A stretch of DNA of 64,000 nt from Piedraia hortae CBS 480.64. Lineage: Eukaryota. Made by a program: the position numbers and the translations under genes. The stretch lies in contig MU005998.1 of NCBI GenBank assembly GCA_010093745.1, forward strand, positions 1-64,000, written 5' to 3'. Below are positions 2,520 to 53,334 of this stretch, one piece after another (the stretch's first letter is position 1; each line of letters starts with the position of its first letter). A model generated the notes under the pieces. That model did not search any database and was not told the DNA's origin. It saw only the letters and a program-made list of their open reading frames with translations.

Positions 2520-2531
2520 GGTTATGAGCCC
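2520..2531 (+). promoter_or_regulatory. Primer binding site GGTTATGAGCCC
   Basis: Copia-type PBS motif directly after the 5' LTR. Confidence 0.85.
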
Positions 2532-2597
2532 GGGCTCTACCGCTAACAAGCGCTATTCAAATTGAGTCTCGAAGCGAAAGCGGAGCTTCCAGAGACC

Positions 2598-7363: not shown

Positions 7364-7374
7364 ACTGAATTAGC

Positions 7375-7383
7375 AAGGGGGAG
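7375..7383 (+). promoter_or_regulatory. Polypurine tract
   Basis: AAGGGGGAG immediately before the TG of the 3' LTR. Confidence 0.85.
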
Positions 7384-7511
7384 TGTTGTGAATATGCGGT
7401 ATATTACGCGCATTATTAGTAATCGGTGTTCGTCTCTCGACTTGACGCGTCAACTAGTTTTCTGTAGTGAGTTGTATGCATACTGATAGACATCTACTCA
7501 CAAATATAACA
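7384..7511 (+). repeat. 3' LTR (128 bp, TGTTG...ATAACA)
   Basis: Canonical TG...CA ends; homologous to 2396-2519 with about a dozen substitutions and a short indel. Confidence 0.93.
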
Positions 7512-8464
7512 CTATTCAACATCATAAACCATCCCGTTTGAAACATCTTCACTTGTAGCTGCTCAATACTACATGGTCCGAGATGCGTAAAGCTGAATCA
7601 AAAGTACTCCCTGGACAAGTGTTCCACGCGCTGCACCTGCACTAGCACCCATGCAGCCTTTCGCAGACAGCACTATCTCCGAATCTTTCTCCAATCTCCC
7701 CACCTGCGAAACAATTTTCCACCGGCTCGCAAGTATATGACATCCTCTCACCGCCCAGAGGAAGATGGCAATGGCCAGCGGAGGGTTGACCGAAAGATGT
7801 GTATACAAGAGGGGAATATGATACGCGCCCACGCAAGAGGTGGAATCGAACGCGTTCATCGCAAGGCACCACTTATCCCAATCCACAGAATACCACAAAC
7901 CCGCGAAGCATCTGCAATCGATTGTTCTAGATCAAGCATAACATCCTTCTATGCAGCTATGGAATAGATCCCCCGCCATTCATTTCCTTGTGCATGCATA
8001 TACATTTGCAACCGCGCCCCATCCTTTGGAGAAGGAAGCAGCGCCGTCGACATGCGTTAGGATCAGCATCAGCATCAGCATCGGCAGGGCAGGGCAGGGC
8101 AGAACACCGATGAAGCACCGGCAGGAAAGTTGGAAGATGATACGGATAGTAGACCATCCTAGTTCATAGAATTGAGTTGAGTATCATGACTTGGGTCCAC
8201 CTCCCGTAGAAGCTCTATTTCGTCAGTTAGCTCCAGTCACTCTCTTTCGAGAATCCACACCGTGTGTTTAAAACCCAACAAGTCCCCAAAAGCAAAGCGA
8301 GAAATAGCGGTGTACAAAAAAAAGAACCCGTTCTCCACATGGTTTCTTTTTCCTAACGGTCAGCCATCGGCTCTGCTCGGCATTTGGATTTTTAGCAAAT
8401 TGCGCCATGATCAACTTCCTTAGGGCTGAGATGTTGCTTTTCTTTTGATTTAGATTACTTCTGG

Positions 8465-9240
8465 GTTGTTACGGCTGATTTGGTCACTGCTTTATTGTGG
8501 CTACCGCGTGCAAGATGGGTGTGGAGTTGGGTGGCTTGTGGAAGCCGGGAAATGTGTGGCTGCATTTGACAAGCTGTTGTGGTGTAACACGATAGGGCTA
8601 TTTCGTAGTCATAGATCTTGATGGGAATTTGTCTTAGGGGGTGGGGATAACTAGGTGGGCAATGGCCAGGGTGTGCGGTTGATTAGATAAGCGGTCTTGA
8701 CTTAACTTAATGAGGCTATAGCGTAGCAGGTGTTGGTTGTGTTTCTTTTGGGGTATTCACAAGGCTCAAAGCTTCTAAGGAGGGGTTAGCATGTGGCTGA
8801 TTTGACAAGCAGTTGTAGTGTAACTAGATAAGGCCATTGCGTACCGACGTTTTTCTTACATTTGGTTAAGTGGTTGTGGGTTCGGAGAAAGCTGAAAGCT
8901 TCCACGGTGGGGTTCAAGCGTCTGGACAGGTGGGCGGTTACGATGTAACTCAAATGGGTACTTTGGCTTGAAAGATAGGGGGATTTTTGGAGAGATCGTG
9001 GTGCTGGCTAGGAGCCTGAGTGGGTTGTGGCTGTGCTGACAAGATAAGACAGTTATGGTTTAACTCAATATGCCGATTGCTTACCTCCATCTAGGCTTGC
9101 GCTTCCCTTGAAGGGTTAGGGCCGAGTGTGGGATGGATTCTGGTGATTTGGAAGGATGAAGACTTTTATGATACGGCGAGGTCAAATCAAGTGGCTGAAC
9201 TAAGAGATGATCATGGTGTGACTCGGGTAAACTATGCCAT
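8465..9240 (-). repeat. Degenerate tandem array, ~119-bp period, with an intron-like conserved core
   Basis: A core like GTGGCTG(C)ATTTGACAAGCwGTTGTrGTGTAAC...GGCyATTkCGTA recurs at ~8555, 8673, 8792, ~8910 and 9026 (weaker at 8471 and 9190) with variable spacers. Confidence 0.7.
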
Positions 9241-9601
9241 TAAACAACTCAGGGTTGAGGGACATTGCTTTTGTGTGATGGGGATTACGGAGTGAGATGT
9301 GATTGCGCTTGAAGGCCTCAGCCTCTTCCATGGTGGGTCAGAAAGAGGCTTCACCGGCAAGTTGATTATGGGCCCAGCAAGTATCCTAATGAATTCAGTA
9401 AGATCAAAGGACACGGTTATTTCATTCGCTACGGAAAATAAGGATGATTCGTAGCTACTGAAAACACACTTGCTTCGTGTGATTCTCCACAGGTGAATGC
9501 TTAATAAAATGACGACATACCCCAGCCCGACCGCTGCATTACTTCCCTCTTAATGTTCATGCTCGGTATAGAGATGTCTACCTGGGTATTCGTAAAGGTG
9601 A

Positions 9602-11142
9602 TTATCGAAGCGTTGCGACAATGTTCATGTTGGATTGAATGTGTACGTTATGGGCGTGCGAGTTGATTCCTTTCAGCGGGTCGACGATTGCCCATTCGAA
9701 GTTTCGCATCAACTATTATAGATTCTTCGTTAGTGATTTGGTTTCTTTGTGGTGGGAAAATTGGTGGTTACCTCGTAGAGAGCTTTGTGTAACTCCATCA
9801 TCGCAATGTGTCTGCCGAGGCAGAGGAAGCGCCCGCTGCCGAAGACGGTGTCAACGGTTCTCTTGTATCTTATTCTCGTCTCTGGGCTTGTGTTGATCCA
9901 TCGCTCAGGGCGGAACAAATGCGCATCTTCGCCAAAGATTTCGGGATTGCGGCAGAGGGCGCTGTCGCAGGTGGCTACCTCAGTCCCTGCGGGAAAGTAG
10001 TAGCCCTTGATGGTGTCACCACCGGGTGGTGCTACCTTGGACTTGAGCCCAAACAACGGCGGGTACATGCGGAGACCTTCCCATAGACATGCACTGAGGA
10101 ATGGAAGTCGCTGCGCTTCATTATAGGAGATGACCGGATACGATACGTCTGCAGCGGCAGCATCGACTTCAGCGCGCAGAATATTGTAGGCCACCGGTGT
10201 GCCGATGAGCAAAAAGAGAGTTATGCGCAAGACGGTAGAAGTTGAGTCAGAGCCGGCAATGATCTGCAAGAAAGCTTCAGCTTCACTCTGAAGTTGCGTT
10301 AAGCCGTGGCTGACAAAATGACCGAGCATATCATTCTTAACCACTTTGGGCTGTTTCTGCCCAGCTTGTACATAACGCTCTGCGACAGAACCGCGCGCAA
10401 TGGCCAGCAAAGGACCCATGCCCACCCGATCCGTTTCTTTGGGTGCCGTCAAATGCTGCATCAACGATGACTGCAAGATTGCACGGAAAAACCGATGATT
10501 GACTGCCCACTCCAGTACAAGAGTGAACTGTGAAGTTTTCTCGTCATACTTCCACAAGTCCTTGTTCGCAGCCATGAAACCAAACGGACGGCCAAAAGCA
10601 ACACTGCTGAGGACATCCAGGGTGAAGAACCTGACAACTGCCGCAAGATCCATGTCCCTACCACGGTATTCCCGGCGTATCAGTTCAATCAACTCCACCA
10701 CCCGCTCATCGATGGTCGGCTCCAGAGTGTCAATGTCTCGACCGTTGTAAGCCCCGGATTCCTTGGACCGCAGCGTTGCGTGAACATGCTCATCTCTGGT
10801 CGAGAAAACAGTATCCTGGCGAGGGTCCAGCTTGACACCATTGTACCATTCAGACCGTCGCCATCGCGAGCCCGGAGCATTGAGATGCCGAACTATATCA
10901 GCGTCGTTTGTCACCAAGAGATTAGGTCCGATGCGTGCAACTGAGCCGTTCTCCTTAATGGCATCAAACTGAGCTTCGTGGACACGGGCTCGGCACGACT
11001 GCCAGAACAACCACGCGCGGCTGCAACCGGCCAAAAAGGGACCACCAAATTGGCGGAGACGACGGTAGTTCACGCAAGCGCCAACTATGGCATAGACCAA
11101 GAAGGCAGCGGCCACGAGCACCAGGGCACTGGCAAGTGCCAT
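9602..11142 (-). CDS. Cytochrome P450 monooxygenase (pisatin-demethylase-like group)
   Basis: N-terminal TM anchor, AGSDST I-helix, EGLR, PERW, heme motif FGSGRFLCLG. Intron 9713-9771 (GTAACC...CTAAC...TAG) gives the C-terminus LMRNFEWAIVDP...ATLR*. Confidence 0.95.
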
Positions 11143-22631: not shown

Positions 22632-23934
22632 CGTCTAACTAATGGTACTTCACATCAATCCACTGTGCCTCTTCCATTGCGGAACCGAGTTTGTATCTTC
22701 TTCCAGATGCCTGTACCACCATGTAGTTCAGGTGAGGTTGGCAGCGTTGAATATCAATCGAGAGCAGATATAATCGTTATGCAGTAGACCACTCTGATGC
22801 CCATGACTACTTGTATTTCCATTCCCAGCAGACCACTTCGACTGTCCTAGATATCCTCCAGAAGGGATTTGCGCGGGACATTGAGGCCCCCTACAACTAA
22901 ACCCCTCGATAGCGATCAGTTACTAGACTGGCAATTTTCACGTCCTGCATTTGTCCTTGAGCTTAGAATCCTCGAAAAGATTGCTTGCATAGCTTTGAAT
23001 TCAGAGATCATGTCAAAAGATGGCACATACAAGCGGTCAGCCTCGTAAAACAGAAAATCATCAATGAAGCTGTTTTGTCAAGGGTTCAATTTGTGCATCA
23101 TCAAAAATACGTATAAATTCTGCAGATGTTATGAACTTTCGAGGTCTTCTGTCGTGTCTTGTCACGTTTATCTTTGATCTGTCGGCGGTCTGACAGCAAA
23201 ACTTGCAAAATATGTATTCCCGACGTTATTGAAAGGATGATTCATCCATTTCAGTATTGGATAGTATGGAGGGTCTCTGTGGGCAGCTTCCTAAAAGTAA
23301 GTGTTGCATAAGCGTTCCACGGGTAAATTATGTATACTCTAGCTCCTAAGCATACCAGCCTCTCTCTCTCTCTTTTTCTCCGAGTTTATTCTTAAAGCCC
23401 CCGTAAATTATCGATTCCCAACCCAGCTATCGAGTTCAATGTCCTCCTCTGACTCCTCTGCATCCCTTCTTCGCCCACGAGACTAAACTGCTGAGCGGGT
23501 CACACCCCCTCCTCCACCTCTTCATCTTCCGTCTCACCCGTAGAATTCCTATTCACATTATCCTCCTCCTTCTCAGTAACATTCTTCACATCCTCCGCCC
23601 TTCAGCGCCGCTCGCAAAAGAAAACCTCCACCACTCATTCCTTTCCGTCCCCAAACCGCCGGATCCGGCTTGAGCATCGACCCTCGTTCACGCAAAAGCG
23701 TCTTAGACGAATAATTGGAATAAAGTGGCCCCACCAATTCGCCTCAAGAAACCCGATCATCCTGTGGAAGTAGGTGTGCATATGCGCCCCACGAAGTCTC
23801 TACATTGGGAAATGAGGCAGGATCGAAGGTGGGAGCTCGAGGATCTGCTGAAGAAGTTGTGGGAGTGGTGGGATATTCGTGGTGATACCTTCCGGGGAGC
23901 CTGGGAATGCGGTGGGGGCACCTGTAGCGATAGT

Positions 23935-24480
23935 GCTCTCGTGGATGGGAGTGCGAAGCGGCCCGAACAAGGAGGACGTAGCGATAGACGGAGATTATCG
24001 ACAGAGATAGGAACGATGCAGGTGGATAGGAGTCAATACCAGTGTCGATATGACACTGTGAATGACAATATATGTGTCTGTATCTCTATGAGGAGACGTC
24101 GGAATATTCTGTACCGGTAGGCTGGTGACGCCACGTCGCGATATGAGTCATCTATGACTCACCAGCCTACAGTAGTGGGGCGCATTCGCCATATCACATC
24201 TGATATGTCCCTGAAGGAAAACGAGTATGAAGGAAACTTTTAAATCAACCCGGCGGAAACGAGACTGAGATATCTACCTATATTCATCTCTGACTCCAAT
24301 GACTATTTTCTGCCAACGTGATTCATCAGTGGCATGGGCCGTTCCGCCTGCCGACTCCAATCCTATAACAAAAACCTCTGTGAGGAATAACCTAGGGTGC
24401 AGCCGTTAGTGTAGGTGGTATCGCTGAGTTGCTAAGCAAGTGCCCCGCATATGCGCTAGCGGTGATGCTTGGCACTAACA
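23935..24480 (+). repeat. Dispersed repeat family A, copy 1 (interrupted by a 148-bp insertion)
   Basis: Aligns by eye with 43580-43925 (e.g. GAGTCAATACCAGTGTCGATATGACA, AACCTAGGGTGCAGC, GCAAGTGCCCCGCAT) and with 50884-51005. Confidence 0.9.
24223..24370. mobile_element. 148-bp insertion with 5-bp target-site duplication (solo-LTR-like)
   Basis: Flanked by AAAAC at 24218-24222 and 24371-24375; ends ...TATAACA; absent from copies 2 and 3 of repeat A. Confidence 0.7.
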
Positions 24481-36019: not shown

Positions 36020-36640
36020 ACCTCGATCCCTGCTACAGTCGGCGCCATTTCCAACAGGGCACCTCAAAGGTCACCAACTTTGAAGCGACACAAGACAGCA
36101 CTGAAACATCGCAGGAACTTATAAACTAGTTCTAGTGATAGCTGCGGCCGTAGGGATTTACTACGTGCTCTTTTTATGTGTTTCTCATCGATTCTGCAAT
36201 GCTGAGTGGCTCTTGAAGATAGCCATCAATAAATCTCGAACTTTGATCCGCGATGGCACGGCAACGCGATAAGATACACGCTTGAAATCACAATACGTAG
36301 TAGCTACGGCCTCAAGAGGTTGTATGAACTTGATTTTGAGTCGTTAATGTCATCGCGCTTGATGCTAATGGCCGTCAAGCTCCTTTCAGCCTCGAGCCAT
36401 GTGACGCCACCAGTAGGCAGCCCAAAGACATGTAAATTGATGAGTAGACCATCTACAACTCTACGCATCAGTCCCACTTTGTTTCGCCACCGATCTGTCG
36501 ATTGTCAGCGACGAGTGGCCTTCGCGGGTTGATTTGGCTGTTTGCGATGATTTGGCTGGGGTTTACAGCCAGCCCCGCACATTAGTGAATAAGCATTTAT
36601 GTAACTTTGAATCACTAGTGAATTAGTTGAAGGATATGTC
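36020..36640 (+). repeat. Left arm of long inverted repeat
   Basis: 36020-36378 matches the reverse complement of 39718-40068 (e.g. CTAGTTCTAGTGATAGC, TAATGTCATCGCGCTTGATG); weaker similarity continues inward. Confidence 0.85.
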
Positions 36641-36777
36641 ACGTGATGACCATGAACAACGTCCCCTCATGTATGCTATTCTAATAAGCAGCGGCACCTC
36701 ACAAGTGAGGTGCGGTTCGAAACCTTCTCCACACTACCTCAGTCTAGCCGCATTCGCCAGGACAACGTCATCGAAAC

Positions 36778-38064
36778 ATGCAAGAACATGAACGAGACGA
36801 TGACCTGTCCCAGGAGAAACTTCCTCCAGAGAGGTTAAAATGCTGAGAAGCCTCGACCTCTATCCATGCTGGCAGAGGCGACCTGGCTGTATACTGCATG
36901 AGAGGGTTTACCGTCTCACACTCACCGCCAGACTTTCGTCCACTCCGAGTTTGTGCCATTGCCGCGTTGATATATGTACAGCAAATAGAGAGTGGATGTT
37001 GGGGAGGGAAACAGCGAGCGCATCTAAGGTGCGCAGTTCATGACGGGAAGACTCCGCATGACGGAACGTTTCCGACGTACAATCAGCTAGTTGAAGAGGT
37101 GGTGTTTGGATACATCGACATACCCCAGGTTTTCGAAGTAGAGTTTCCCACACATATTTTTTCCGGCATATACAATTCTAGTTATTATTTCAAGGTTCAC
37201 CACATAATATACTATGCGTCCGAAAGAATAATCGCGAAAGTGCTTCCTTTGCCATGGTTCCACTGAGGATGGGACTGGTTCTCAAAAGCAAGAAACGTCG
37301 TTGAACACCAAGGCAAAGTTTGGAAAGCATCTTTTCCGCGACAATCATGTAAGAACTGTGGCACAGGTGAAGTTTTTCGAACTGAATTCAGGCACAACAG
37401 TGTTAGACTACCTCTATAACGACCTTCCGACGTTCTACAGAGAATCGACGAAGGTGCAGTGTGAATCAGAGGTATTGTCTAAGGCATCTCTATCTTCTGC
37501 GGTCGAGCGGCGAGGAGCCGCGCTTGAACCTTAGTTATACATCACCTATTCCAAGACACATAGAGGTACGAAAGGAAGACCTCGAACGATACCAAGCATA
37601 CCTGGACTGGGAGCAGAGATACAAAGTAGAAGAAGCCCGGCGTATTTACCTTGATTCGTCCGGGATGCGAGCCCGAGCGTCACCCATGCAAAAAACCAAC
37701 TTGCAGTCGCGAGTCCATCCTATGCAATCAGTCGTACCAATCGCGAGGATGATGTGGCAGAGTTTGATCTGTTTGAAGACACAGACATGCTGGAGGACGA
37801 CAACGAGCAGTGTGCTGTTGTTGAGGGGCAATAGTGCAAGAAGACGAGCATATGGCCAACTCTCTTGAGGTCGGCACATTTTCTGCAAAGGCGAACCGCA
37901 ACAACGATAATGAGGAAGTTGCCTACGATAGCAATGACGACGACCTTGCAGTGGATCCTGTAAATGAAGGACTACTTATCGAGAATGACGCTGCTGAAGT
38001 ATGTTACGGCGAGACTGTGTGTGCGAGGGACGACCCGCGCCGCCTAAGCGCACAGGGAATTTGA
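36778..38064 (+). pseudogene. Orphan family X, copy 1 (frameshifted, acidic C-terminus)
   Basis: Chain of short same-strand ORFs. The 5' part matches the reverse complement of 49580-49800 and an internal part matches 26200-26515. Confidence 0.55.
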
Positions 38065-39584: not shown

Positions 39585-40068
39585 GTAGTGTGGGGAATTT
39601 GGATGAGATGTCACCCCACCTTGTACGCTATCCCCGCAATAGTAAACTAGTGGCGCAATATTGTGCGGGGTTAGCTGTGTTGACTCCGCGACCAAAAAAC
39701 ATGAGCTCAATCGAGGTCGAACGACCATTAACATCAAGCGCGATGACATTAGTGACTCAGATTGCGGTCCATGCAACTTTTTGAGGTTGCCGCTATCACA
39801 TACTGTAGTCACAAATGTATATCAGCTCGCACTGCTGTGTCATTGCGATTCAAAATTCCAGGTTTTGCGAGGTTCGTCTTCAAGAGCCAACTATCGATGC
39901 GTAATTGATTATAAACACAAAAAATAATCATGTAGTAAGTCTCTACGGTCATGGCTATCACTAGAACTAGCTTATAAGCTTATGCGATGCTCCAGTGTTG
40001 TTTTGTGCCGTTTCAGAGTTGGCGACTTTTGAGGTGTCCGTTGAGAAGTTGTACCGACTGTATAGGGT
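39585..40068 (-). repeat. Right arm of long inverted repeat
   Basis: Reverse complement aligns with 36020-36378 and, with gaps, up to the CCACACTAC motif at ~36730. Confidence 0.85.
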
Positions 40069-40257: not shown

Positions 40258-40975
40258 CTAGCTAACATCTTCTAGCATCTGCGCCCCCATATTCATTGCA
40301 ATACAGTCCTTGGGGAACGACTTATAAGGCAGATCGAGGAAGATCTGCCAAACACCTTTTTCCCCGTCACCGGACACGCCTGCCAAGTCTAATTCTCGGG
40401 CCCAAACACTCCACCGTCCTGGTAATCTTGTCCAGTGACATATGGCAAATTTAACAAGACATTATTAGCAGATTTGTAGGTTTCCCGCCGGCCGATGTAT
40501 ACGTCAGTGCGCCGTCCGTCTGCATGTAACTTATGCGGATTTGACTGTTACTGGGTCACATGGCCCAGATTGGTCTGGTAGAATGCGGTCTTGTTATCCA
40601 CACACGTGCAGACTTCATTGGCACAGTTTTTCGACGCATCCAAGCCAATGTAAAAGTGGCCTTCCGACGCTCCGACCAGTTTTGTGTATACGGGCGTTCC
40701 ACGCCGCACGGCGAAAATGTAATGAATATGTAATAGTCGTCTGTCGAGAGCCGGTATAATATTGTCTGAAAATTTACGCAGCTGAGTCCTCGTTAGGTGG
40801 TGGATTTTAGGTTAGAGTAGGTAGTCGGCTGACTAGTGAGAGAGTGGGTTGAGACGGCCGTAGTTGCATGCCTTGCTTTTAGTCCCGATTATGGTGGGAC
40901 ACACCCACGTAGGGCTGTTTGTATTACACGTCCATTTGGTTGGGTCATAAAGATCTCTAGTGGTAATCACCAGCT
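40258..40975 (-). pseudogene. CBM52 + IgE-binding-protein-like secreted gene, copy B (decayed)
   Basis: LYDPTKWTC...VCP...AC, intron GTCAGC...CTAAC...CAG, ASEGHFYIG, YMQTDGALTYT, WQACP, WQIFLDLPYKSFPKDCIA across several frames. Confidence 0.75.
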
Positions 40976-41736
40976 CGAATTTTAGTAAACCTGTCCGGCC
41001 CCAGGTAAATCGCAATACAAATTTTGGGGAACGACTTATACGGCAAATCCAGAAAGATCTGCCTAACAACTTTCTTCCCTTTAACTGGACACGCCTGTCA
41101 AGTTCAATTGTCTGACTAAAACAGCCCACCGCCTTTATATTCCTGGTCCACCACATATGGTGGGGCATCAATGGCATAATAGTCGCCTCCAAAGCCACCT
41201 ATCAACATGTTTGTATAGTTCCCACCGGCCTCCGTGTACACCACTGCGCCGTCGGTCTGCACATATATGAGCTGTGATTGGCTTACGGTGCCCAGGATAC
41301 TCCGGGCATAAATGGTGTTGTTGTTCAGACAATGGCCAGCGGACGCTGGGCAGTAAGTGACCGCTTGAATACCAATATACAAGTGCCCTTGTGATGCTTC
41401 CACTAACCTTCCGTCAATCTGTGTTCCGGGTCGTAAGGCTTTGATCGTCCAGTCCCATGTTGTCATACGTTGCCTGTGCATCGTTGAGGCAGCTAGTGCA
41501 TTGTTAGGTGTAGATATGTTTGGAGGACCGGGAGTGACTGACTAGGTATGCAGCGGATAGATACACTGCTTGCCGCATGGGATATCTTTGATGCTGAGCT
41601 TGATAGGGCAGATTAGCGGGGCGCTGTCTGGCCAACACGCAAAAATGGAAGGGTCATAGTGCAATTCGCCGCACGTACTCAGCATGGCGGCCGCGACGCC
41701 TGTCAGAGTCGTAACAAGGAGGGATATAACGTGCAT
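40976..41736 (-). pseudogene. CBM52 + IgE-binding-protein-like secreted gene, copy A (frameshifted)
   Basis: Signal peptide MHVISLLVTTLTGVAAA, CG..HYDP..FAC...ICP...PCG.QC, intron GTCAGT...CTAAC...TAG, then ASQGHLYIG...YCP...QLIYVQTDGAVVYT...QACP...QIFLDLPYKSFPKICIA. Confidence 0.78.
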
Positions 41737-42149
41737 GACGGATGAGTCTTGAGGGTCACCTTTCCAAGTCTTTAGCTGGGGAAAAGGTGTGCATTAGATT
41801 ACTATATAGCGTGACCAAGTCGTCTTTCAATACAAAGAGCTCGGGAAACGAGGCTCGGCGGGCTTGCCCGCAGAAAGGTGGTTCACCTCGTAAAGAGAAG
41901 GCATTAGTGGCGTTTATATGGTGCTGCTGCCAGAGGTTGGCGACCATGACTGCAGACGCCGCTTGCACCTCATGCATGCTACTTTGAGTATGGCGAACAC
42001 CTTGAGAGCTTCGATCCGTCAGAAGATACAAAGCTATGCGGCCTGTTGCGAATCTGAGTGGGAAGCCTTTTGCCGGAGATAAGCCATCGACAGCCCCGAC
42101 AGAGAAAGAGTTTCTCTTGTTGGATTTTCATTCCAAGATAGCGAAACTG

Positions 42150-42870
42150 ATCTAACCTGATGCTCTCAGCTAGTCTCATTCTAGGGATAGAAAAGGTTCC
42201 TGGCACATGTTATTCTCCACCGAGTTTATTGATGTAATCTGCCTCGGATCCGTAGCGGCTGCCCAACATTGTACCCCTACCCGTCCATCAGCTTCATGGT
42301 ATCGATTTGAGACGGGTCAGGACTTCAGGTTCTGACTGGTTGTAGGCCATACTCAGGTTCATTGCCGCAAATATCAGCGCACTGGCAATCTTATAGTCTT
42401 GTTGTCGCTGAAGAAAGGCATAGCTCTGGGCTGCGGAACGGTGAAGTGCAATCGCCGGCGGGATTACCGATGGAGGTAGTCTCATCTTGTCAGCCCACTG
42501 TATAAGCTCAGTCCCTGCCTCGTTGAATTTGCATTGGTCAATGTTGAGAGAGCCCTTGGCAAAATTGCGGAGAAGGACAATGAGCTTTCCCAGGTCAGAG
42601 CGGTTACATTTCGCGCCTGCATCATATAATCGCGTTAAGGAAATTTTCCTGATAGAAGGCTGCGCAAAATGATATTGGCTACAGCAATGGCCAGCTCTAG
42701 GTTTCCGCTGAAAACGGGGAAGTTGCAGGGCCATGTCAAAAAGCTCTTGGATATCCCAATCTGTGCACCTGCGAGAAACGAATCCACTCGCACACTTTCA
42801 TTTTTTCGTCATCTTTATGTATCATTTTCTGCGGTGCTCCAACTTCTAGATCAAACGTGGTTTAATTAGG
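42150..42870 (-). pseudogene. Pseudogene of the TFIIB-like multi-cyclin-repeat family
   Basis: QELFDMAL and ADKMRLPPSVIPPAIALHRSAAQSYAF...IASALIFAAMNL align with KELFDKAL and AQVMKLSRDVLPLAMDLYSRAAESSAF...TASALILAASNL of 44804-45853. Stops and frameshifts present. Confidence 0.75.
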
Positions 42871-43579
42871 TATAGTGGCGGAACTGCTTGATTTGTCCAT
42901 TGGTGAGATTGTGGTTTAGTCAGTTGTAGATATTTGGTTTGACGGAACCCGTAATATTGCCTTGGTCGACCAGTCCACGCCACGGTAAGACTGGTGGATC
43001 AAAACGATTCACTCATCTAAGTGTGATTCGTTCAGAGATTTTGTCCGCTAGTCTTAGTGAAGCTGTGCTGAGAGGGCTCTGACTGCATTCATTCATTCAT
43101 ACGACGCATCCTATCTGAGGGAGCAGTGGTCACTATCGCGTGCATGGCTGCTGTTTGAGTTGATGGACACTGTCAGGTCAATCTGCTTAGCGCGTTGTCA
43201 TTCCGGGGTGCCCGGAAGCTGGAAGATATATGTATCTGAGGAGGTCATGTATGACATAGCGTCAGGTAAGTTGAGAAAGAGTCTATCCCGTTCGTGATCC
43301 ACAGATCTGGGGCCACCCTCTGTCAACAGGGCACATAATCCATGATTCTCAAGTTTAGACTGCTTGAAAATATAATTGAACAGAGGAAAACGACAGGCTT
43401 CGGGTCCAAATTGGCTCATCAACTGTAAAAGAAATGGATGCGTAAAATCGACGACTTTCTGCCGCCTACAGATGCACATCGGAGAATGTTCCATGGTTAT
43501 ACCACATTTACCTCATCCCACGCGCCATCTGAAGTAGGGTGCCTGCCTGTCGTGGGATGTTTTATCTGTTGCGATTGGG

Positions 43580-43925
43580 CTCGCGTGGGTGAGAGTGCGC
43601 AGCGGCCCGAAGAGGACGAAGCGATAGACGGAAACAGGGGCAGGACAGATAATGATGGATATGAGTCAATACCAGTGTCGATATGACAGTGTGAATGACT
43701 ATCTATCTCTATGAGGGGACGTCAGAGTGAATATTCTGTACCGGTGGGCCGGTGACGTCACGTCGTACACTAGCAGGGCGCATTCACCATGTCACATACG
43801 ACATGACCCTGGGAAAACCTCTGTGAGGGGAAAACCTAGGGTGCAGCTGGTAGTGTAGGTGGTATCGCTGACTTCCTATGCAAGTGCCCCGCATACGCGC
43901 TAGCGGCGATGCTTGAATCCAACAT
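43580..43925 (+). repeat. Dispersed repeat family A, copy 2
   Basis: Homologous to 23935-24480 without the 148-bp insert. Confidence 0.9.
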
Positions 43926-44803
43926 TATCCCGCAATAGGCGGATGCGTCGGCTAATCTCTGGCTGTCCACCCACCTGGGTAGGTGTTCAAAGTAGGTTAG
44001 TAACCTGGTGGGGCAGTGGGCTTTAACCATTGAACTACTGTTCGTGGGTTCGAATGTGATAAGCCAAGACTGCCGTTGCCCAAGTTTCAATGGTCCGGAC
44101 CACCCCTCAGTAGTCGAAACGACTGGTTCTATACACTGAACCGTCACGAAAAGGGATATGGGAAGGAGAGGGCTAACAGATTCCTGGGTGCGCGACATTA
44201 GCGGATCGCACCCGGATTTTTAGGCTAAATAAAAGACAAAGACCTCTACCCCGAATTTTGTCAACTCTGCGCGTTTTTGTTTTTTCCGCCCAACCTCTTG
44301 TAACCTTTGTCAACACAAACAATAACATGCGCTCATATCTCCATATAAAAAGGCGAACGAGCTCTCCAGTCTGATATAGGGACTTTCTCCGCTGAATGTC
44401 TCGTTCTGACTCTGCAAAGGCAATGATAAGGAGATGCCATTGCTTTTGGGTGCAATCTTACAGATTGAGGAGAGAAAAAAACTTCTATAGAACTCAAAAG
44501 CACCGCCATGTATATGTCATTTGCACATGGTACCCTTAGAAATTTCTAATGCAGGCATTGTATGCTTCAGATTCCCACTATATCTACCCTGAAAATCCTT
44601 GACCCCGTCTGGGTGAATGGTTGCCTTAGAGACAGTCTCACAACAGTCCCACGCTCTCGTCAAACACGTTCACACGGTCTAGGTAATGGCAACGACATGC
44701 CGCGTTGTTATGGTGCTATGTCGTTTAATAGCATCAATCCTAATCTCTTCAACACACCCCCCGCCAAGCCACAGAAGATACCTCAGCGTATCTGCAGCTT
44801 AAA

Positions 44804-45853
44804 ATGTCCGAGCAACAGCCTATCTCGATCCTTTCGGAAGACGTCGCAGCTTCTGGTGAGGTAACCAAATCAAGAGTAGCTGAAGTACGCCCAAACACCA
44901 ACAACACGGCGACCCCAGAAGGCGTACCCAATGCCACGCAAGCCGGCTACGCGCAGATCGAACACCTGAAGCGGGTCATGCGCCTGAGCGACCAACGTGT
45001 TGCCAAATCCAAGGAATTGTTTGACAAAGCCCTGAAGACTTTGAAGATCCAGGGGAAGTCCCCGGAGGGTGTTGCAAGCGCCGCCGTGATCTTAACCCTT
45101 CGTCAGACGGGTGATGGCCGTACCCAGCTAAAGCTCGAGAAGCTGGTGACCAATGTAACTCATGTCCACTTGCGTCAGAGCATCATGTTGCTTCGTGACG
45201 TTGCTGTAGAACAGGGCGAGATCGACCCCGAAAAACTCGCCTCCGCTCACGATAAATTGACTCGTCAGGCGCAGGTTATGAAGCTGTCACGCGATGTACT
45301 TCCCCTGGCCATGGACCTCTACAGTCGCGCTGCAGAGAGCAGCGCCTTCAAGAGCAAGAAAACCGAGCTCATCACCGCCAGTGCTCTGATCCTCGCGGCT
45401 TCAAACCTCGAGGCGGGCTTCACCCAGCCTCATTTGGAAAAAGCGTCTGGACTCAAGCCTAAAGCCCTGCGTGCCTGCGTGACAATGCTTGAGGAAGTCA
45501 CCGGTACCAAAAGACAGTCTCGCAATGAGCCATCTCTTTGTCGCCGGTACTGCGAGACGCTTGAACTGAGCCAATTGACGACACAGGTTGCGGTGCACCT
45601 GGCAGAGCGTGTTAAAGAAGTTGACATGGGCGGTCGCCGTCCCAGTGCATGTGCCTTGGCCCTTGTGTACATTGCCTCTTTTTTGATGGATGAGTTGCTC
45701 TCAATCTCGCAGCTGACCGGGCTCGATGGTGCGCCATCTGCGTCAACGATTAAAGATGCTTACAATGCACTACGCCCCGGTCTGGATACATTTATGACAG
45801 ATATTGAGGTGGAGACTGTCAATAATGTACGTGATCTCGCTGACTCCATTTGA
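44804..45853 (+). CDS. Divergent TFIIB-like protein: three cyclin-fold repeats, no zinc ribbon
   Basis: Intact 349-aa ORF with AAAATGT start. Repeats at aa ~46-132, ~146-231 and ~243-324 resemble TFIIB core repeats (GKSPEGVASAAV...RT; LCRRYC..L.L; GRRPSACALALVYIAS; STIKDAY). Confidence 0.8.
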   Translation: MSEQQPISILSEDVAASGEVTKSRVAEVRPNTNNTATPEGVPNATQAGYAQIEHLKRVMRLSDQRVAKSKELFDKALKTLKIQGKSPEGVASAAVILTLRQTGDGRTQLKLEKLVTNVTHVHLRQSIMLLRDVAVEQGEIDPEKLASAHDKLTRQAQVMKLSRDVLPLAMDLYSRAAESSAFKSKKTELITASALILAASNLEAGFTQPHLEKASGLKPKALRACVTMLEEVTGTKRQSRNEPSLCRRYCETLELSQLTTQVAVHLAERVKEVDMGGRRPSACALALVYIASFLMDELLSISQLTGLDGAPSASTIKDAYNALRPGLDTFMTDIEVETVNNVRDLADSI

Positions 45854-46675: not shown

Positions 46676-47516
46676 ATGAGCTTCTTTGATCTGCGCGGGT
46701 ATCTAGAGGAGTATATGCTGAGCAATCAGTGCGCTTACGACCTTGTGTCCTTGAGTTTTGCTGACTGATCAGGAATCATCGGACGACGAAGACGTCGGGG
46801 TTTATCTGAACAAGGGCGCTCAAGGATATTAGATTAATGGCGCGGTTGATAGCACTGGCGGCAGCCAGAATACTGTACCAGCCCGAGTCACCGAAGAAGC
46901 CAGCACCACAGGAAGTCAGATCCACGAGACAGTAGGCACTGCAGAAGGTCAGGTCCACAAAGCAGACTTCACTGCAGAAGACCAGTCCACCGCAGTAGGC
47001 CAGAACACCAAGGAATTGATGCCTCCACTCAAGTTTCACTCCGACAACCTGGGCGACCAGTTGCAAGCCCTCGACGAGCTGCTTCCAGCCATGCGTGAGG
47101 GCCGTCCGTTGGCCAAGAGCACCATCCCACGCTTGATTGAGTTCATCAGGTTCCCAAAGAAGACTCTCCAATGCAAGGCGCTTGCCGCCATCGCCCTCAT
47201 GGCGCCTCATGTACAGGGTGATCTGATTGCTGCCGGTGCCGCTTCGGCGCTCAAGAATTCCATTCTTGCCGCGCCTATCCTCAGCTAGCACGCAGCCGAG
47301 ATCCTAGCCATGCTGGCTGGTGGCGGTACAACCTGTCGTCATGCTGTCATAGCGGCCAATGTGCTCAGGCCTATCAACCTCACGGACTTGCTGTTCCTTC
47401 CATCGCTCGAGACACAGCGTGCGGTGGCTCTCCTCTTCCGCAACGTCTGTCACTACGAATACGTTATTATCTTGTGCGTCTATTATTGGGATGTGATGAG
47501 AGATGTATCCCCCTAG
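46676..47516 (+). pseudogene. Divergent importin-alpha (armadillo repeat) fragment
   Basis: FHSDNLGDQLQA...IPRLIEFIRFP..TLQCKALAAIA...AAGA..AL...*HAAEILAMLAGGGTTCRHAVIAANVLRP...QRAVALLFRNVC resembles ARM1-4 of Srp1/Kap60. In-frame TAG at 47286-47288; truncated. Confidence 0.65.
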
Positions 47517-48149: not shown

Positions 48150-49800
48150 TCAAGTGGAGCTCAGGTCGAATTGCCGCCACTGGCCTCGTTCTTCTGGATA
48201 CTCTTGCTTCAATTTAGCGGTCGGGCCATGCGTTGTTTGGTTATACCCGTTCCAAGGGCAACGCTCTTTATAGTGTCTGAGAAGCGAAGCTTGGCCATCC
48301 CGGTTATTTAGGCCGTTTTGGCTGTCCACCTTGCAGCTGCTGGCAATCATCATCCAGGGTTTCGAATAGCTCGTCATGTGTACAGTTACGGGACTCGTAT
48401 AGTTCACTCTGGCAAATTGATTCCCGAGGCGGGTGCGGTGGAAATACCAGTCTAATAGTGCCAAAGGGTATCTTGGTGCTTGGACTTGAACGGCGGTCAC
48501 CAGTATATGATTCCGTACGGCCATGAAGAAAGGATGTAATGGGAAGACTTGTATGCCAAGTCTTCCCCAGAGTCCGGCACGACCTGGACTGCATTCGCCG
48601 CAATGACGTCCTGCGAAGTGAATACACCCTAGGGAAAATATCCTTGGTGGGTTAAAGACCATGGAAAGTCCAGCACCCTATCCACCTTACGCAGGCGCAC
48701 GACAGCTTTGCATTTTTTCGATCGCGTTTAATCTTTGAATCTTGATAGCGTGAGCATGATCCGGCAGCAGCCCCTTGGGGGTAAGGGCCGCCATAGCCGT
48801 CCATGGCAGTTTTATAGGCAAATCGGCTGGCTGGGGCCTATGCCGAAATCCGTGGCTCAAACTGGGCTTTGAAGGTATCCAAACCAAGCATGTCAGCGGG
48901 ACACCTGCAAATAAAGCATATTGTCGCAAATACAATCTGATCGACTGCGAATGTGGTGTGCAGAGGGGAGGAAACCTGGAGCGCCCAGCCCCCGATCTAG
49001 ACGTCGAGTCGGTAAACCCGTGCTTCCTTCGACGCTTGTTGTGTGACTGCACGTGTTGTTTTAAACAATGATTCAGTCTTGACTTCCGTGAGATTTGTCG
49101 GAGCATCCTCGGGATCAGAATCTAAGTGTTGTGGGGCTGCCATGTGCATTAACCGCTAAACTTCTTTAAGCTTTAGACCAGGATTCCATGCTAGGTCAGA
49201 AAGCCGACGTACCGAAACACCAAGTGCTTTCCCCCTTAGTTGATGGACGTTTGTTTTCAAACGATAACTCGCGGTGCGCCGTGAAAACGCACTTGACGTA
49301 AGTGAACAGGTGTGGCCGTTCGGGCAAGTCATTGCCTCGTATGGAAGCTGGAGATCGCCAAGGGCCGACTATATGCTTCTGGACTCCTGCACAGGTGTGC
49401 CTGGTCGGTATAGCGCGCGCCTGGAAAACCACATGGATGAAACAGCCATTGGAAGAGAGGGTTGGCCCATAACAGGGACCAATTTTTCGCTACATAGTTT
49501 CTTCCAGATGTGTTGAGACTGGTACGGGCTATTTAGGGATTGCCTATGGCAAGGTATCGTCAGCAAGTGCTTAGAGGCTGTCACGCAGTATATTACCAGG
49601 TGTGAGAAGGATGTGGCACCTACCATGACCAGAACTGTAGGTAGAAGTCGAAACTTCTCAGGGTTTTTACCTCTACAGAGAAAGTTTTCCTTGAGACGGG
49701 CCATTATCTCGTTCATGTTTTAAGGGCATGGTTCTCTGACATTGTCCTGGCGAATGCGGTTAGACTGAGGTAGTGTGGGGGAGGTTTCGAACCTCACCTC
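48150..49800 (-). pseudogene. Orphan family X, copy 2 (decayed)
   Basis: Reverse complement of 49580-49800 matches 36707-36900 (GGTTCGAAACC...CCACACTACCTCAGTCTA.CCGCATTCGCCAGGACAA). Weak peptide echoes further in (VLDFPW/VLPLPW; RES..C.SE). The 3' limit is uncertain. Confidence 0.5.
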
Positions 49801-50883
49801 ATAGAGAGATAGAGATACACATTTCACTTTTTCAGTAAAAGTTGAGTGAGAACTTTTGTACGCTCCACTTTAATCCTCGGAGGTTCACCCCTCCGACGAT
49901 AGGGCTGTAGACATCTACACCCACCTTTTGGCCAGAGTCAAGCACACACACCTGTCATTGGTCCACGTTCCGTCTAACCACACGGAGGTTCGCCATTACG
50001 ACAAATGCGCTAGTGCTACAGTGATTAGAAACACCGCCAGGAGGCGTTGAAAACTTTTATCGCGAGGGAAAAGATGCACCAGACACAAAGGATGAGGGAT
50101 TATACCACCAGCGATCGCGGGGTTTTATTGCGCGGAAAATCTGAGACGTATCATGTTTTTCTTCGGAGATGCAGAGAGTTGAAGAGGCGGGTAGGATTTT
50201 GGGGCAGAGTGTTATCTGGCTGGCGAAATTTCATTCGGCAAAAAATCCGAGACGTCCCTGTGCGTGGGACATTTGATTTCGGCATATGGGGAGGGGCGAA
50301 GACGCGAAGAGGATTTTGGAGCAGGGGGGTGCCGGTGGTGGAGGCTCAGAAGCCTTCTCCGCTGCGTGCATGCTTTTGATCAACACTCAAACGAGAATGG
50401 CACCACATACAACAGACGGATATAGTTAAGGTCGGCCCTCATTTTAAATAGAGTTTTCCGATCAGGAAGGGCATTGTTGAGATCTCATCACCTATGTGTT
50501 CATCTCCTTACCACACTCTCTCTTCATCATCCCTTGAGCTCGTTGTGCAGCCCGATGGTATCGTGTTCCTTTTGGGAATGCATCGAGTGGTCTTGCAAGT
50601 GCGATCGCAAAAAGTCAACGAGATACGATCATATATTTCACGTAAACCAACCAAAAAGGTTGTACAACGTTATATATGAATACAGATGGTATTTGCGAGC
50701 GAAAACGATGGGGAAGAGCAGAGGAGTGTGCACAAGTGAATACAAGTGTACCTACGAGGGGACATCAGAGGATATATTCTGGGTCGGTAGGCCAGTGCGT
50801 AGCCTCGTATGAAGAGTCATCAATTGTATGACCATAAGCAAGTAATTATATATGCGGTAAGACCGTCAGCATGCGGTCTTACT

Positions 50884-51005
50884 CCATGACTCACCTCAAG
50901 CAGTAGAAGGGCGCATTCACCATTTTTCATGCAACATGACCCTGATGGAAACTCCTGTGAGGACAAAACCTAAGGTGCAGCTGCTGGTGTAAGAGGTGTC
51001 GCGCA
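50884..51005 (+). repeat. Dispersed repeat family A, copy 3 (partial)
   Basis: ATGACTCACC...GGGCGCATTCACCAT...ATGACCCTG...CTGTGAGG..AAACCTA.GGTGCAGCTG matches copies 1 and 2. Confidence 0.8.
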
Positions 51006-52175: not shown

Positions 52176-52810
52176 TCACTCCTTCACCCATTTCCTCGTC
52201 ACATTCGTCTGTCGACAAGAAGGCTCATCAGGCACTGAATCCGGACTGGTTCCAATCAACCACTGCAGGCCCGTATACCGGTAGTATGATACATTGTCGC
52301 AAATATACCATCTGTAGTATGGATTCCCTTTGGAGTCGGCAATGTACATCTTCTCATCCTTGTCAAAGGCAACCTCGGTGAATTGGTAGCCTGGGGTGAA
52401 TAACGGATCAGCCATGTTGGACAGAGGGCCGATGCCCAGCTGCATAGGCTCCGAGACTGCATCCTGTTAGCTTCGACCCTCAACAAGGACCCGTCAACCT
52501 CACTGTTGAAGTCAGCTCCATGGAGCTCATACGTCAGGATGCCACTAGGGACGGAATAGGAACTGGTGTTGTGCTGGAAGAACTGATAACTTTCGGTTGC
52601 ATTCATCTCGTTCCCAGGGCAAAGGCCTTCAATGGCAGCGCCTTCATGACACCCGCCGAACGTGGTCCCGTCGTACTCCTCGTTCCCGGGGGAGTCGACT
52701 ACGAGGAAGAAATTCGCGGTCTGATTGTCGAACTGAGCTATGACGGTACCGAGAAGCCCGCTCATGGTGATGAGGATGGCGGCGGCGCTCCTAATACTCA
52801 TCGTCTTCAT
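52176..52810 (-). CDS. Conserved fungal small secreted/cell-wall protein
   Basis: Signal peptide, CHEGAAIEGLC motif, intron 52457-52503 (GTGAGG...GCTAAC...CAG), then YRWYIC...Y..LQW...P.C..V.R.WV. Confidence 0.85.
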
Positions 52811-53334
52811 CTTCGGAGTCTGACTTGGGTGGCTTGTCACGGGCTAGATACTGACACGCACTCAGGAGCAAGGGGAGCATCTACCACTTGGATGAACGGC
52901 TCGATGAACGAAGAATGAAGGGTGTCAAGGATGGCTTCGTGAGCGATGGAGGATGGGGGAGACGATGGAGCTTTATGAATAGATCGTATTGATTTACTTC
53001 CCGATTCAGCAGGATCAAGGAGGTTTCATGCACGATACAAGCATGAAGATGCGGGGAATTTCTGCGCCGAGACCCTGACCTGCAGCTTCTGATTTGTCAA
53101 CAAGACTCAGGTCGCTGCAAGCACTTAGTCAAGCGGGGTGAGCTGGTTCACTATACTCGATCCAGAAGGAGGGGCAAAGTCCTGACTTTTGTCACTGCAA
53201 AGATTCACGGGGCATAACGAAGATCACTTGATTGGATGACAGCTATGCCTCAATGGCCACGCTCACAACGCCACAAACATCTGCCCCATTAATGCCCGCC
53301 ACCGTAGCACGGATCTAGGTAATACATCCCCGCG

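Follow-up and report, generated by a model that had tools for sequence, protein, structure and literature searches.

A TFIIB-like open reading frame with three cyclin repeats and no zinc ribbon in a Dothideomycete

Introduction

What can a TFIIB-family protein do at a promoter when a third repeat has joined its core and the head is gone? The hallmark of this family is a ribbon that docks the polymerase, with a two-repeat core behind it that binds TBP and DNA; it is via the zinc ribbon, the B-reader and the B-linker that TFIIB, Brf and Rrn7 engage and activate their polymerases. To our knowledge, fungi have essentially three canonical members of the family. A similar division, with an N-terminal ribbon that docks the polymerase and two cyclin folds that contact TBP and DNA, is given for TFIIB-like factors in a passage of a published account (PMC7865254). 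A 64,000-nt stretch of DNA from a black-yeast-type Dothideomycete, hereafter called the window, carries an open reading frame (ORF) with such an altered layout, which would amount to a natural experiment in which promoter recognition is uncoupled from polymerase recruitment. If its product bound TBP-promoter complexes, it would be an endogenous competitor of TFIIB; if it did not, the TFIIB core fold would have been re-purposed.

Results

As originally predicted, an uninterrupted, intron-free ORF of 349 aa runs from ATG to stop at 44804..45853 on the + strand, and its length is far beyond chance. The stop-to-stop frame around it spans 369 codons, with an in-frame stop 60 nt 5' of the ATG, while the runner-up frames in 35.9-53.3 kb reach just 190-195 aa; open frames of at least 369 codons are expected by chance 2.4e-4 times in 17.3 kb and 9e-4 times across the whole window. 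The codon score of the ORF was 0.232 bits/codon, compared with 0.147-0.247 for nine housekeeping ORFs of the window, and was as good as that of MSH6, exportin-T or ALDH; its two off-frames scored -0.45 and -0.52. The GC3 of the ORF (0.593) was as in host genes, and the gene was present in one copy (one DNA run, at least 80% identity). The ORF and the parts of its product, P0001, are as follows.

44804..45853, + strand: TFIIB-like protein P0001 (ORF of 349 aa plus stop; PF00382 in three stretches)
44804..44935, + strand: N-terminal tail, aa 1-44, with no predicted fold (pLDDT < 50 for aa 1-43) and without zinc ribbon (no PF08271) or B-reader
44936..45211, + strand: repeat 1, aa 45-136, the extra repeat, of the first-repeat type and with a net charge of +7 (PF00382, first-repeat HMM, offset-100 similarity, Atlas model)
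45224..45511, + strand: repeat 2, aa 141-236, the counterpart of the canonical first core repeat of TFIIB (HMMs, structure), with conserved basic residues lost
45512..45808, + strand: repeat 3, aa 237-335, the counterpart of the canonical second core repeat of TFIIB (HMMs, structure), with conserved positions largely kept

The Pfam TFIIB repeat profile (PF00382) matched the whole protein three times (E 9.5e-20, 70.9 bits; cut-off 23.6). When the pieces were searched separately, aa 45-127 gave an E of 1.4e-8 and aa 144-230 an E of 1.6e-5, and aa 247-296 alone gave an E of 1.5e-4 at 22.1 bits, slightly short of the cut-off. To type the repeats, one HMM was made from the first repeats of the canonical hits and another from their second repeats. 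Repeat 1 scored 43.1 bits against the first-repeat HMM and 33.3 against the second, repeat 2 scored 56.4 and 28.5, and repeat 3 scored 16.2 and 62.3. Furthermore, an ungapped alignment of aa 45-129 with aa 145-229 had a BLOSUM62 score of +49 with 19 identities in 85 positions; the next best offset scored -17, and none of 5000 shuffles reached +49. Gapped BLASTP and blastn between the internal repeats found nothing significant. Since the gapped BLASTP comparison was not significant, the internal duplication appears to be old; it is detectable only by ungapped or profile comparison. Among the 71 proteins compared, P0001 alone had the three-repeat layout. The original prediction had placed repeats 1 and 2 exactly 100 aa apart, had called them N-terminal-type and repeat 3 C-terminal-type, and had expected PF00382 to match; each of these points held, with the zinc-ribbon family giving no match, and the motifs it named (M59RLS/M159KLS, L111EK/L211EK, GRRPSACA, VYIAS and STIKDAY) all stand where it had put them in the translation. 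Its central claim, an internal repeat duplication in a TFIIB-family protein, agrees with Pfam, with the repeat HMMs and with the structure models.

For the structure models, alignment A1 took in 63 of the 70 hits (64 rows with the query), and seven long or multi-domain hits were omitted by choice. AF2 with A1 gave a pLDDT > 90 over about aa 141-335, the core, and from the single sequence a pLDDT of only 41. Foldseek placed the core model on 1c9b and 1vol, the human TFIIB core in complex with TBP and DNA, with a target-normalised TM of 0.84 and an rmsd of 2.4-2.5 Å over 196 columns, and a phmmer search of the PDB matched aa 145-338 to the human TFIIB core (E 4e-10). The query-normalised TM was ~0.5 to TFIIB chains and ~0.26 to cyclins T, D3, B1 and C. 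Repeat 1 was not compactly folded in the AF2 model (pLDDT 50-75), because A1 has almost no rows there; in the Atlas model, repeat 1 had a TM of 0.76-0.83 to TFIIB repeats over 96-100 residues. Structure prediction, which had been suggested as a check, thus returned a TFIIB-like core, and a TFIIB-like repeat 1 in the Atlas model but not in the AF2 model.

The TFIIB-like gene sits in a repeat-rich, gene-poor stretch of ~17 kb that is bracketed by inverted repeats of 160 nt (36706-36862 and 49642-49801). Among the 74 other frames of at least 75 aa in 35.9-53.3 kb, four had weak Pfam hits and one reached the cut-off; outside this stretch, the window carries normal intact genes, and the nearest homologue of Jip5 was just 66% identical. 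The neighbours, which had been described as decayed, therefore fit that description roughly within 35.9-53.3 kb but not beyond it. No Rfam match at E <= 0.1 was found in 41-47 kb, and ARAGORN found no tRNA in the window. Two features lie 5' of the ORF.

42294..42797, - strand: truncated second copy, from late repeat 1 to repeat 2 (tblastn E 6e-11, phmmer E 7e-10)
43566..43924, strand not assigned: high-copy dispersed repeat between both copies, ~0.9 kb 5' of the ATG of the ORF (read depth, window copies)

Over the dispersed repeat, the summed contig depth was 1,500-10,700 vs 13 on both sides, and further copies were found at 23922-24471 and 50887-51002. The second copy is a 167-aa stop-to-stop frame, divergently oriented and ~2 kb away, that shares 32% identity with aa 70-218 of P0001. 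It was the only other phmmer hit with E < 1 among 2483 frames of at least 15 aa, and neither its N-terminus nor its repeat 3 was found among these frames. It had no Pfam match and no relatives were found for it; its codon score was 0.025, and it is probably a relic. Because it spans the junction of repeat 1 and repeat 2, the three-repeat layout is older than the gene duplication. RIP was considered as a source of the divergence and rejected, as the indices were not RIP-like for the ORF, the second-copy fragment or the flanks.

A probable relic next door raises the question of whether the ORF is itself non-functional, a lineage-specific duplicate that is dying out, with this as its last open copy, inactive now and still open because selection was lifted only recently. 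This would fit a sister copy 2 kb off that is cut short and no longer shows a coding signal, the surrounding 17 kb nearly without recognisable genes and with many dispersed repeats, relatives found nowhere and the loss of conserved basic residues. However, a 369-codon frame is hardly expected by chance, the codon score falls sharply off-frame, the profile still recognises all three repeats, the core is modelled at a pLDDT > 90, and a long divergence (<= 28% identity to any TF(II)B) has passed without one stop codon gained. We consider a relic unlikely, and the ORF is probably a functional gene with a three-repeat, ribbon-less architecture.

The residues that are conserved among the hits were unevenly kept in the core. 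In the first core repeat, the canonical motif Y..ACR....PRT..EI..KK.I.R reads I..AAS....GFT..HL..PK.L.A in P0001, and the conserved residues (the R of ACR, the R of PRT, the E of EI and the K/R of KK.I.R) are replaced by S, F, H, P and A. The second core repeat keeps R248, C250, L253, G277, P280, A284, A286, Y289, T315, I316 and Y320, and the TI(K/R)..Y helix there is well preserved. In addition, the two-repeat core has a net charge of 0 vs a median of +11, which is among the lowest 8% of 61 hits. The signs on TBP-DNA binding are thus mixed, with the geometry and the second repeat kept but basic residues lost from the first core repeat; judged from the sequence, TBP-DNA binding may be weakened or lost, given the lost basic residues and the neutral core.

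ORC6 and cyclins use the same fold for other partners. P0001 could likewise be a functional scaffold of three cyclin folds that acts off TBP-DNA, with the TFIIB fold re-purposed for another protein or nucleic-acid partner. The loss of conserved first-repeat residues, the neutral core and the extreme divergence from the TF(II)B consensus are in line with this, as are the further Pfam matches to the same stretch (Cyclin_C, 37.8 bits; Cyclin_N, 28.6 bits; and a weak ORC6 match, 15.4 bits, cut-off 22.2). In contrast, TFIIB is by far the top profile at 70.9 bits, the query-normalised Foldseek TM is about twice as high to TFIIB as to cyclins, and little has changed in the second core repeat, TI(K/R)..Y helix included. 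We do not think it likely that the fold has left TBP-DNA.

The nearest relatives of P0001 among 1.84 billion representatives were at most 28% identical, and P0001 itself was the only entry with E < 1e-10. No orthologue was found in 5.8 billion word-indexed clusters or in the exhaustive search of the 1.84 billion representatives, and none of 444 pattern matches in JGI metagenome contigs and none of 263 in viral contigs was confirmed as a relative. As far as these searches indicate, P0001 looks lineage-restricted, in keeping with the original prediction. Against the archaeal TFB model, P0001 scored 69.8 bits vs 164.9 for an ordinary fungal TFIIB. A quick ML tree, which took A1 minus the two of 64 rows having < 150 core residues, joined P0001 to other long branches in no well-supported clade. 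AU tests rejected neither a grouping with fungal TFIIB (p 0.43) nor one with the archaeal clade (p 0.86), and therefore the tree says nothing on origin; the second AU test turned up a better tree than the one from the quick free search, and the ML topology is not for close reading.

A foreign or mobile origin, in which the gene came with a giant virus or as cargo of a large mobile element and not by duplication of the TFIIB gene of the fungus, would be compatible with any function. The top ESM Atlas feature neighbours include Nucleocytoviricota-rich clusters without a listed zinc-ribbon family, but by the Atlas's own warning such rows are no sign of transfer. The Dothideomycete TFIIBs (P0029, E 5.9e-5; P0070, E 9.7e-4) are no closer to P0001 than animal or archaeal ones, and the repeat-rich island has its flanking 160-nt inverted repeats. 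However, codon usage and GC3 are host-like, the 74 neighbouring frames are without a viral or transposase domain, the viral contigs yielded no relative, and the AU tests leave the fungal grouping as well as the archaeal one standing. Such an arrival is, in our estimate, very unlikely.

The polymerase-contacting head was then sought within the protein and upstream of it. The zinc ribbon PF08271 had no match in P0001 at E <= 1, and CxxC is absent from the protein. Upstream, a scan of all + frames over 41500-44900 (~3.3 kb) for CxxC/H...CxxC/H motifs came up empty, and tblastn with four ribbon-bearing TF(II)Bs found nothing significant there, the TFIIB-like ORF itself being the sole find; the best upstream match had an E of 2.4, at 44283-44396, in a stretch riddled with stop codons. 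The absence of a CxxC zinc ribbon, noted originally from the letters for the ORF and the upstream ORF examined, was thus borne out by Pfam, motif scan and tblastn for the ORF and the DNA upstream. The ribbon-Cys and E-W-R-x-F columns of the hits are gaps or unlike residues in P0001, and the E-W-R-x-F columns (68-76% of hits) read N-T-N-x-T in what is a forced alignment of an unstructured head. In the place of the B-reader and B-linker before the core, P0001 has a cyclin repeat. Short 5' introns are frequent in fungal genes, but it is extremely improbable that the gene model is incomplete and that a spliced upstream exon supplies a zinc ribbon and reader, so that the product would be a regular TFIIB-like factor whose linker is unusual, given the motif scan and tblastn results, the high-copy repeat that fills 43566-43924, the in-frame stop before the ATG and the entire extra cyclin repeat at the linker position.

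Discussion

Our tentative reading is that the ORF is a real, lineage-restricted protein-coding gene whose product is a highly diverged TFIIB-family protein that may occupy TBP-promoter complexes without Pol II. The promoter-binding repeats are present and the RNA polymerase-recruiting part is absent, so P0001 may modulate rather than start transcription; the most likely role that we infer is that of a non-recruiting TFIIB-core protein modulating initiation. That P0001 acts specifically as a non-recruiting binder of TBP and promoters is possible, though doubtful. There is a precedent in vitro, where an N-terminally truncated TFIIB core reportedly binds TBP-DNA but cannot recruit Pol II.

P0001 would descend from a TFIIB-type core by duplication of the first repeat and loss of the head that contacts the polymerase, and a later head-to-head gene duplication would have been followed by decay of the sister copy. 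The core appears to retain the TFIIB geometry seen on TBP-DNA; because this geometry is retained, the protein could sit on TBP-promoter complexes, or on a platform related to them, and recruit no Pol II. It would then compete at some promoters, modulating or repressing initiation there, and the basic extra repeat may contribute an additional DNA or protein contact. In its strongest form, which we regard as rather improbable, P0001 would be a natural headless TFIIB: its core would sit on TBP-promoter complexes or a TBP-like platform, the basic extra repeat would clamp DNA, Pol II would not dock, and the protein would be a dominant-negative factor silencing a gene set or repeats. Were this strongest form true, it would be a mode of repression acting at pre-initiation-complex assembly; we found no description in the literature of repression at this step by such a headless TFIIB for fungi. 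The gene, known from a single genome, is at 349 aa and without introns a compact target for expression and binding assays.

P0001 resembles the cores of TFIIB (Sua7) and archaeal TFB (1c9b, 1vol, 1ais, 1d3u) in the order and relative placement of two repeats, in its PF00382 matches and in keeping the hits' conserved second-repeat positions. Unlike these factors, it is without the zinc ribbon, B-reader and B-linker, has an additional first-type repeat in front, is at most 28% identical to them, lacks conserved basic residues in the first core repeat and has a neutral core. Brf1 and Rrn7 combine ribbon and core with an extended C-terminal domain, whereas P0001 is without the ribbon and ends 14 residues past the core; no other Pfam family that could represent such an extension was found in P0001 at E <= 1. 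Like ORC6 and cyclins, P0001 has ribbon-less, tandem cyclin-type folds. However, the ORC6 family PF05460 remains below its cut-off of 22.2 bits for the whole protein (15.4) and for the best piece (17.8), and Cyclin_C and Cyclin_N pass their cut-offs yet overlap the much stronger TFIIB match. A cyclin identity was rejected on the poor fit to the four cyclin folds (TM ~0.26) and the dominance of the TFIIB profile.

Losses and gains of modules occur elsewhere in the family. In passages of the plant account, AtBRF5 consists of a linker and one cyclin fold without a zinc domain, and AtBRP3 of one cyclin fold (PMC7865254). P0001 is similarly a lineage-specific TFIIB-family paralogue minus canonical modules, and the functions of the plant proteins are, in these passages, largely unknown or regulatory. 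In contrast, the plant proteins as described there lose cyclin folds and the fungal P0001 gains one, with no detectable kinship between them. The metagenomic P0052 has a zinc ribbon and four TFIIB repeats, so that its cyclin-repeat core is multiplied as in P0001; the whole two-repeat core is doubled in P0052, whereas only the first repeat is doubled in the fungal nuclear P0001, giving three.

An uninterrupted TFIIB-like ORF with a coding signal

The ORF at 44804..45853 on the plus strand runs open from ATG to stop over 349 codons, as the original prediction had it, and the residue positions of the motifs quoted there agree with its translation. The stop-to-stop frame enclosing it comprises 369 codons. 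Stop triplets occupy 4.1% of positions in the non-genic sequence around it, and frames of that length are expected by chance 2.4e-4 times in the 17.3-kb stretch and 9e-4 times in the whole window; the runner-up frames within 35.9-53.3 kb reach 190-195 aa. For a codon log-likelihood score, nine conserved ORFs of the window served as the training set and nearby non-genic sequence as the background. The ORF obtained 0.232 bits/codon in frame, -0.52 and -0.45 in the other two sense frames and at most 0.01 on the opposite strand; the nine housekeeping ORFs themselves scored 0.147-0.247. Its GC3 was 0.593, versus 0.49-0.66 in the same nine ORFs. No RIP signature was present in the ORF, and in one public DNA run, possibly the source of the DNA, it was single-copy at 80% likeness or above.

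Three repeats in an A'-A-B layout

The predicted 349-aa protein, P0001, matched the TFIIB repeat family PF00382 in Pfam at E 9.5e-20 over three stretches, with overlapping and much weaker matches to the clan relatives Cyclin_C, Cyclin_N and ORC6. P0001 was divided into three pieces, each scanned alone against PF00382, and its repeats were also scored with two HMMs built from the first and second core repeats of canonical hits, the query being excluded.

Repeats of P0001: PF00382 match of each piece alone, then first-repeat and second-repeat HMM scores
Repeat 1: aa 45-127, E 1.4e-8; 43.1 and 33.3 bits
Repeat 2: aa 144-230, E 1.6e-5; 56.4 and 28.5 bits
Repeat 3: aa 247-296, E 1.5e-4 (22.1 bits, slightly below the 23.6 cut-off when alone); 16.2 and 62.3 bits

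The HMM scores therefore give the layout A'-A-B, in the order first proposed, with repeats 1 and 2 of N-terminal type and repeat 3 of C-terminal type. The offset of exactly 100 aa between repeats 1 and 2 was also borne out: aa 45-129 aligned ungapped to aa 145-229 with a score of +49 (19/85 identities), whereas the best other offset scored -17 and none of 5000 shuffles reached +49. Gapped BLASTP and blastn found no significant match of repeat to repeat, so the duplication is ancient.

By phmmer against PDB sequences, the human TFIIB core (5wh1, 1c9b, 1tfb, 1vol) aligned to aa 145-338 at E ~4e-10, and an archaeal TFB repeat aligned separately to aa 60-125 at E 6e-4. An AlphaFold2 model built from A1, a protein alignment of the query with 63 distant hits, had pLDDT above 90 for aa 141-330. 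Foldseek placed this modelled core on 1c9b and 1vol, the human TFIIB core bound to TBP-DNA, with a TM of 0.84 (target-normalised; rmsd 2.4-2.5 A, 196 columns, E ~2e-8); cyclins reached only ~0.26. Pfam and structure thus agree with the TFIIB-like, cyclin-fold identity claimed at the outset. Repeat 1 appeared in the AlphaFold2 model as long helices at pLDDT 50-75, poorly modelled because A1 has almost no rows there. In the ESM Atlas model of the same sequence, aa 40-140 aligned to TFIIB repeats of many clusters with TM 0.76-0.83 (query-part-normalised) over 96-100 residues. Profile evidence and this one predicted model point to a third cyclin fold. Repeat 1 is also the most basic part of P0001 (+7 over 92 residues).

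The polymerase-contacting head is missing

No zinc-ribbon family matched P0001 in Pfam at E<=1, and CxxC is absent from it. Aligned in A1, P0001 has gaps or unlike residues where the hits carry their ribbon cysteines and the reader motif E-W-R-x-F. A spliced upstream exon could in principle supply the ribbon, but no CxxC/H-(8-30)-CxxC/H motif occurred in any plus frame of 41500-44900 or in the minus-strand sequence that precedes the second TFIIB-like copy described below; a tblastn search using one fungal-type, two archaeal-type and one algal TF(II)B, all with a ribbon, found the ORF alone, its top upstream match having E 2.4 in stop-codon-rich sequence at 44283-44396; and a high-copy repeat upstream of the ORF leaves less than 0.9 kb for any such exon, which is therefore very unlikely. 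The ribbon is accordingly missing from the ORF, as anticipated, and from the upstream sequence searched. Because two defining family features, the ribbon and the reader-linker, are absent, we class P0001 as a variant derived from TFIIB and not itself a TFIIB. We consider it probable that the ORF is a functional gene with this three-repeat, ribbon-less architecture.

A diverged second copy

A second TFIIB-like copy lies ~2 kb upstream of the ORF on the opposite strand:
42294..42797 (-): 167-aa frame, 32% identical to aa 70-218 of the ORF product (tblastn E 6e-11)

With phmmer over 2483 frames, it was the sole other match with E below 1 (E 7e-10). The frame runs from late repeat 1 through most of repeat 2, and since it spans both, the three-repeat layout predates the head-to-head gene duplication. 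Its repeat 3 and N-terminus were not detectable among the 2483 frames, it had no Pfam match, its codon score was 0.025 and no relatives of it were found. The second copy is most likely a relic.

No close relatives of P0001 were found

Among 5.8 billion clusters, a word-indexed search recovered nothing besides P0001 itself. Exhaustive phmmer over 1.84 billion representatives gave 71 proteins at E<=1e-3; below 1e-10 there was only the query, and the closest other match had E 6e-8 and 28% identity. Those hits that carried a name were ordinary TF(II)Bs, coming from fungi (Pyricularia, Lasiodiplodia, Zalerion, Coemansia, Lophiotrema), animals, protists and archaea. No relative was detected when JGI metagenome contigs and viral contigs were scanned. 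Repeats were counted by scoring all 71 proteins with the first- and second-repeat HMMs.

Repeat counts among the 71 proteins
One repeat: 2, fragments
Two repeats: 66, with a ribbon-like motif in 41 and none in 25 (some fragments on short contigs)
Three repeats: 1, the query alone
Four repeats: 2, P0052 and a nematode entry (P0011)

P0052 is a metagenomic protein of 477 aa in which a zinc ribbon precedes four PF00382 stretches, that is, a doubled core. Like P0001 it has a multiplied core, but with four repeats and the ribbon retained; multiplied cores of this sort occur in metagenomic or archaeal proteins. The four repeat pieces counted in P0011 are probably a prediction artefact.

The NCBIfam archaeal TFB model gave the query 69.8 bits versus 164.9 for a normal fungal TFIIB; judged from such sequence comparison, the distance of the query from the family consensus far exceeds that between fungi and archaea. 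In a quick ML tree of cores it fell among long branches, outside any well-supported clade. By AU test it could group with Pezizomycotina-type TFIIBs (p 0.43) or with the archaeal clade (p 0.86), neither being rejected; a better tree had escaped the free search. A foreign origin of the gene, a question separate from its function, appears improbable.

A putative promoter-level role

A TFIIB core truncated N-terminally keeps TBP-DNA binding and loses Pol II recruitment. In TFIIB-like factors, the N-terminal ribbon contacts the polymerase dock and the two cyclin folds bind TBP and DNA (PMC7865254). A headless protein with a TFIIB-shaped core could sit on TBP-promoter complexes without recruiting polymerase, and such occupancy would give it a role as competitor or modulator; the basic extra repeat could supply an additional DNA or partner contact. 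We propose only tentatively that P0001 is a non-recruiting TBP/promoter binder. In A1, the Y..ACR....PRT..EI..KK.I.R that the hits conserve in the canonical first core repeat reads I..AAS....GFT..HL..PK.L.A in P0001, and the residues conserved in the second core repeat are well kept. The net charge of its two-repeat core is 0 versus a median of +11, in the lowest 8% of 61 hits. At the level of sequence, the simple decoy reading is weakened by these lost residues and the neutral core. Of the original interpretation, the structural half (three repeats, TFIIB-like core, no ribbon) is thus supported; the functional half is plausible, though the conserved basic residues that P0001 has lost count against it. 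That P0001 is a re-purposed scaffold seems unlikely, and we hold it similarly doubtful that it is a relic.

P0001 is built from, and would work most like, a TFIIB/TFB core, differing from the family in its absent ribbon and reader-linker. Incomplete TFIIB-like proteins have been described from plants, one example being AtBRF5, which lacks a zinc domain and carries a single cyclin fold (PMC7865254). Within the accessible text of the literature, full-text search found no description of a TFIIB-like protein with three repeats and no ribbon, nor of additional TFIIB paralogues in fungi. This unusual architecture lends itself to clean tests, but it has been seen in a single genome, where its neighbourhood is decaying.

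A gene-poor, repeat-rich neighbourhood

The DNA of the window is fungal. For Jip5, the closest homologues, with an identity of only 66%, belong to Teratosphaeriaceae/Mycosphaerellales-type Dothideomycetes (Meristemomyces, Oleoguttula, Zasmidium and others), so the collection searched holds no close sequenced relative of this genome. Outside 36-53 kb lie what we take, from reading their translations, to be normal genes: exportin-T, ALDH, mitochondrial AspRS, MSH6, FPGS and Pelota-like ORFs. Within 35.9-53.3 kb, only 4 of the 74 other frames of at least 75 aa had weak Pfam matches (Carb_bind twice, TPR_12, DUF7907), one of them reaching the cut-off, in keeping with the decayed neighbours initially described.

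Several dispersed and inverted repeats occur in this gene-poor stretch. One dispersed repeat (~43566-43924 / 43504-44004) had a summed contig depth of 1,500-10,700 versus 13 in both flanks in one DNA run, with further copies at 23922-24471 and 50887-51002, many variants and internal deletions. It had no Rfam or tRNA match and looks like a high-copy non-autonomous element. Other features were as follows.

36034-36375 / 39721-40062: inverted-repeat pair, 342 nt, 73%
36706-36862 / 49642-49801: inverted-repeat pair, 160 nt, 81%, enclosing a 13-kb segment with both TFIIB-like copies, in which no transposase-like domain was found
40836-41793 (-): two frames weakly matching fungal Carb_bind PF10645 (E 1.1e-5 and 3.8e-3)
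40282-40445 / 40996-41160: 165-nt direct repeat, 75% identity, near the Carb_bind frames
46833-47285 (+): 151-aa frame with the top coding score of the stretch (0.271 bits/codon)
47289-47513 (+): 75-aa frame following it, ARM/HEAT-like by reading
52179-52843 (-): overlapping frames with weak DUF7907 matches (E 2.7e-3 and 0.023), beside MSH6
4775-7363 (+): two adjoining frames of 419 and 442 aa, copia-type retrotransposon pol-like by reading (integrase/RT/RNase H)
1-83, 2395-2519, 7383-7513: direct repeats around the copia-like frames (81 nt at 100%, 127 nt at 87%)

The Carb_bind frames and their direct repeat look like remnants of a repeated secreted-protein gene. The frames at 46833-47285 and 47289-47513, which had no Pfam match at E<=5, may belong to an unrecognised or decaying gene immediately 3' of the TFIIB-like ORF, and those at 52179-52843 could be either a relic or a small gene with an intron. 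The direct repeats flanking the copia-like frames may be LTR pieces.
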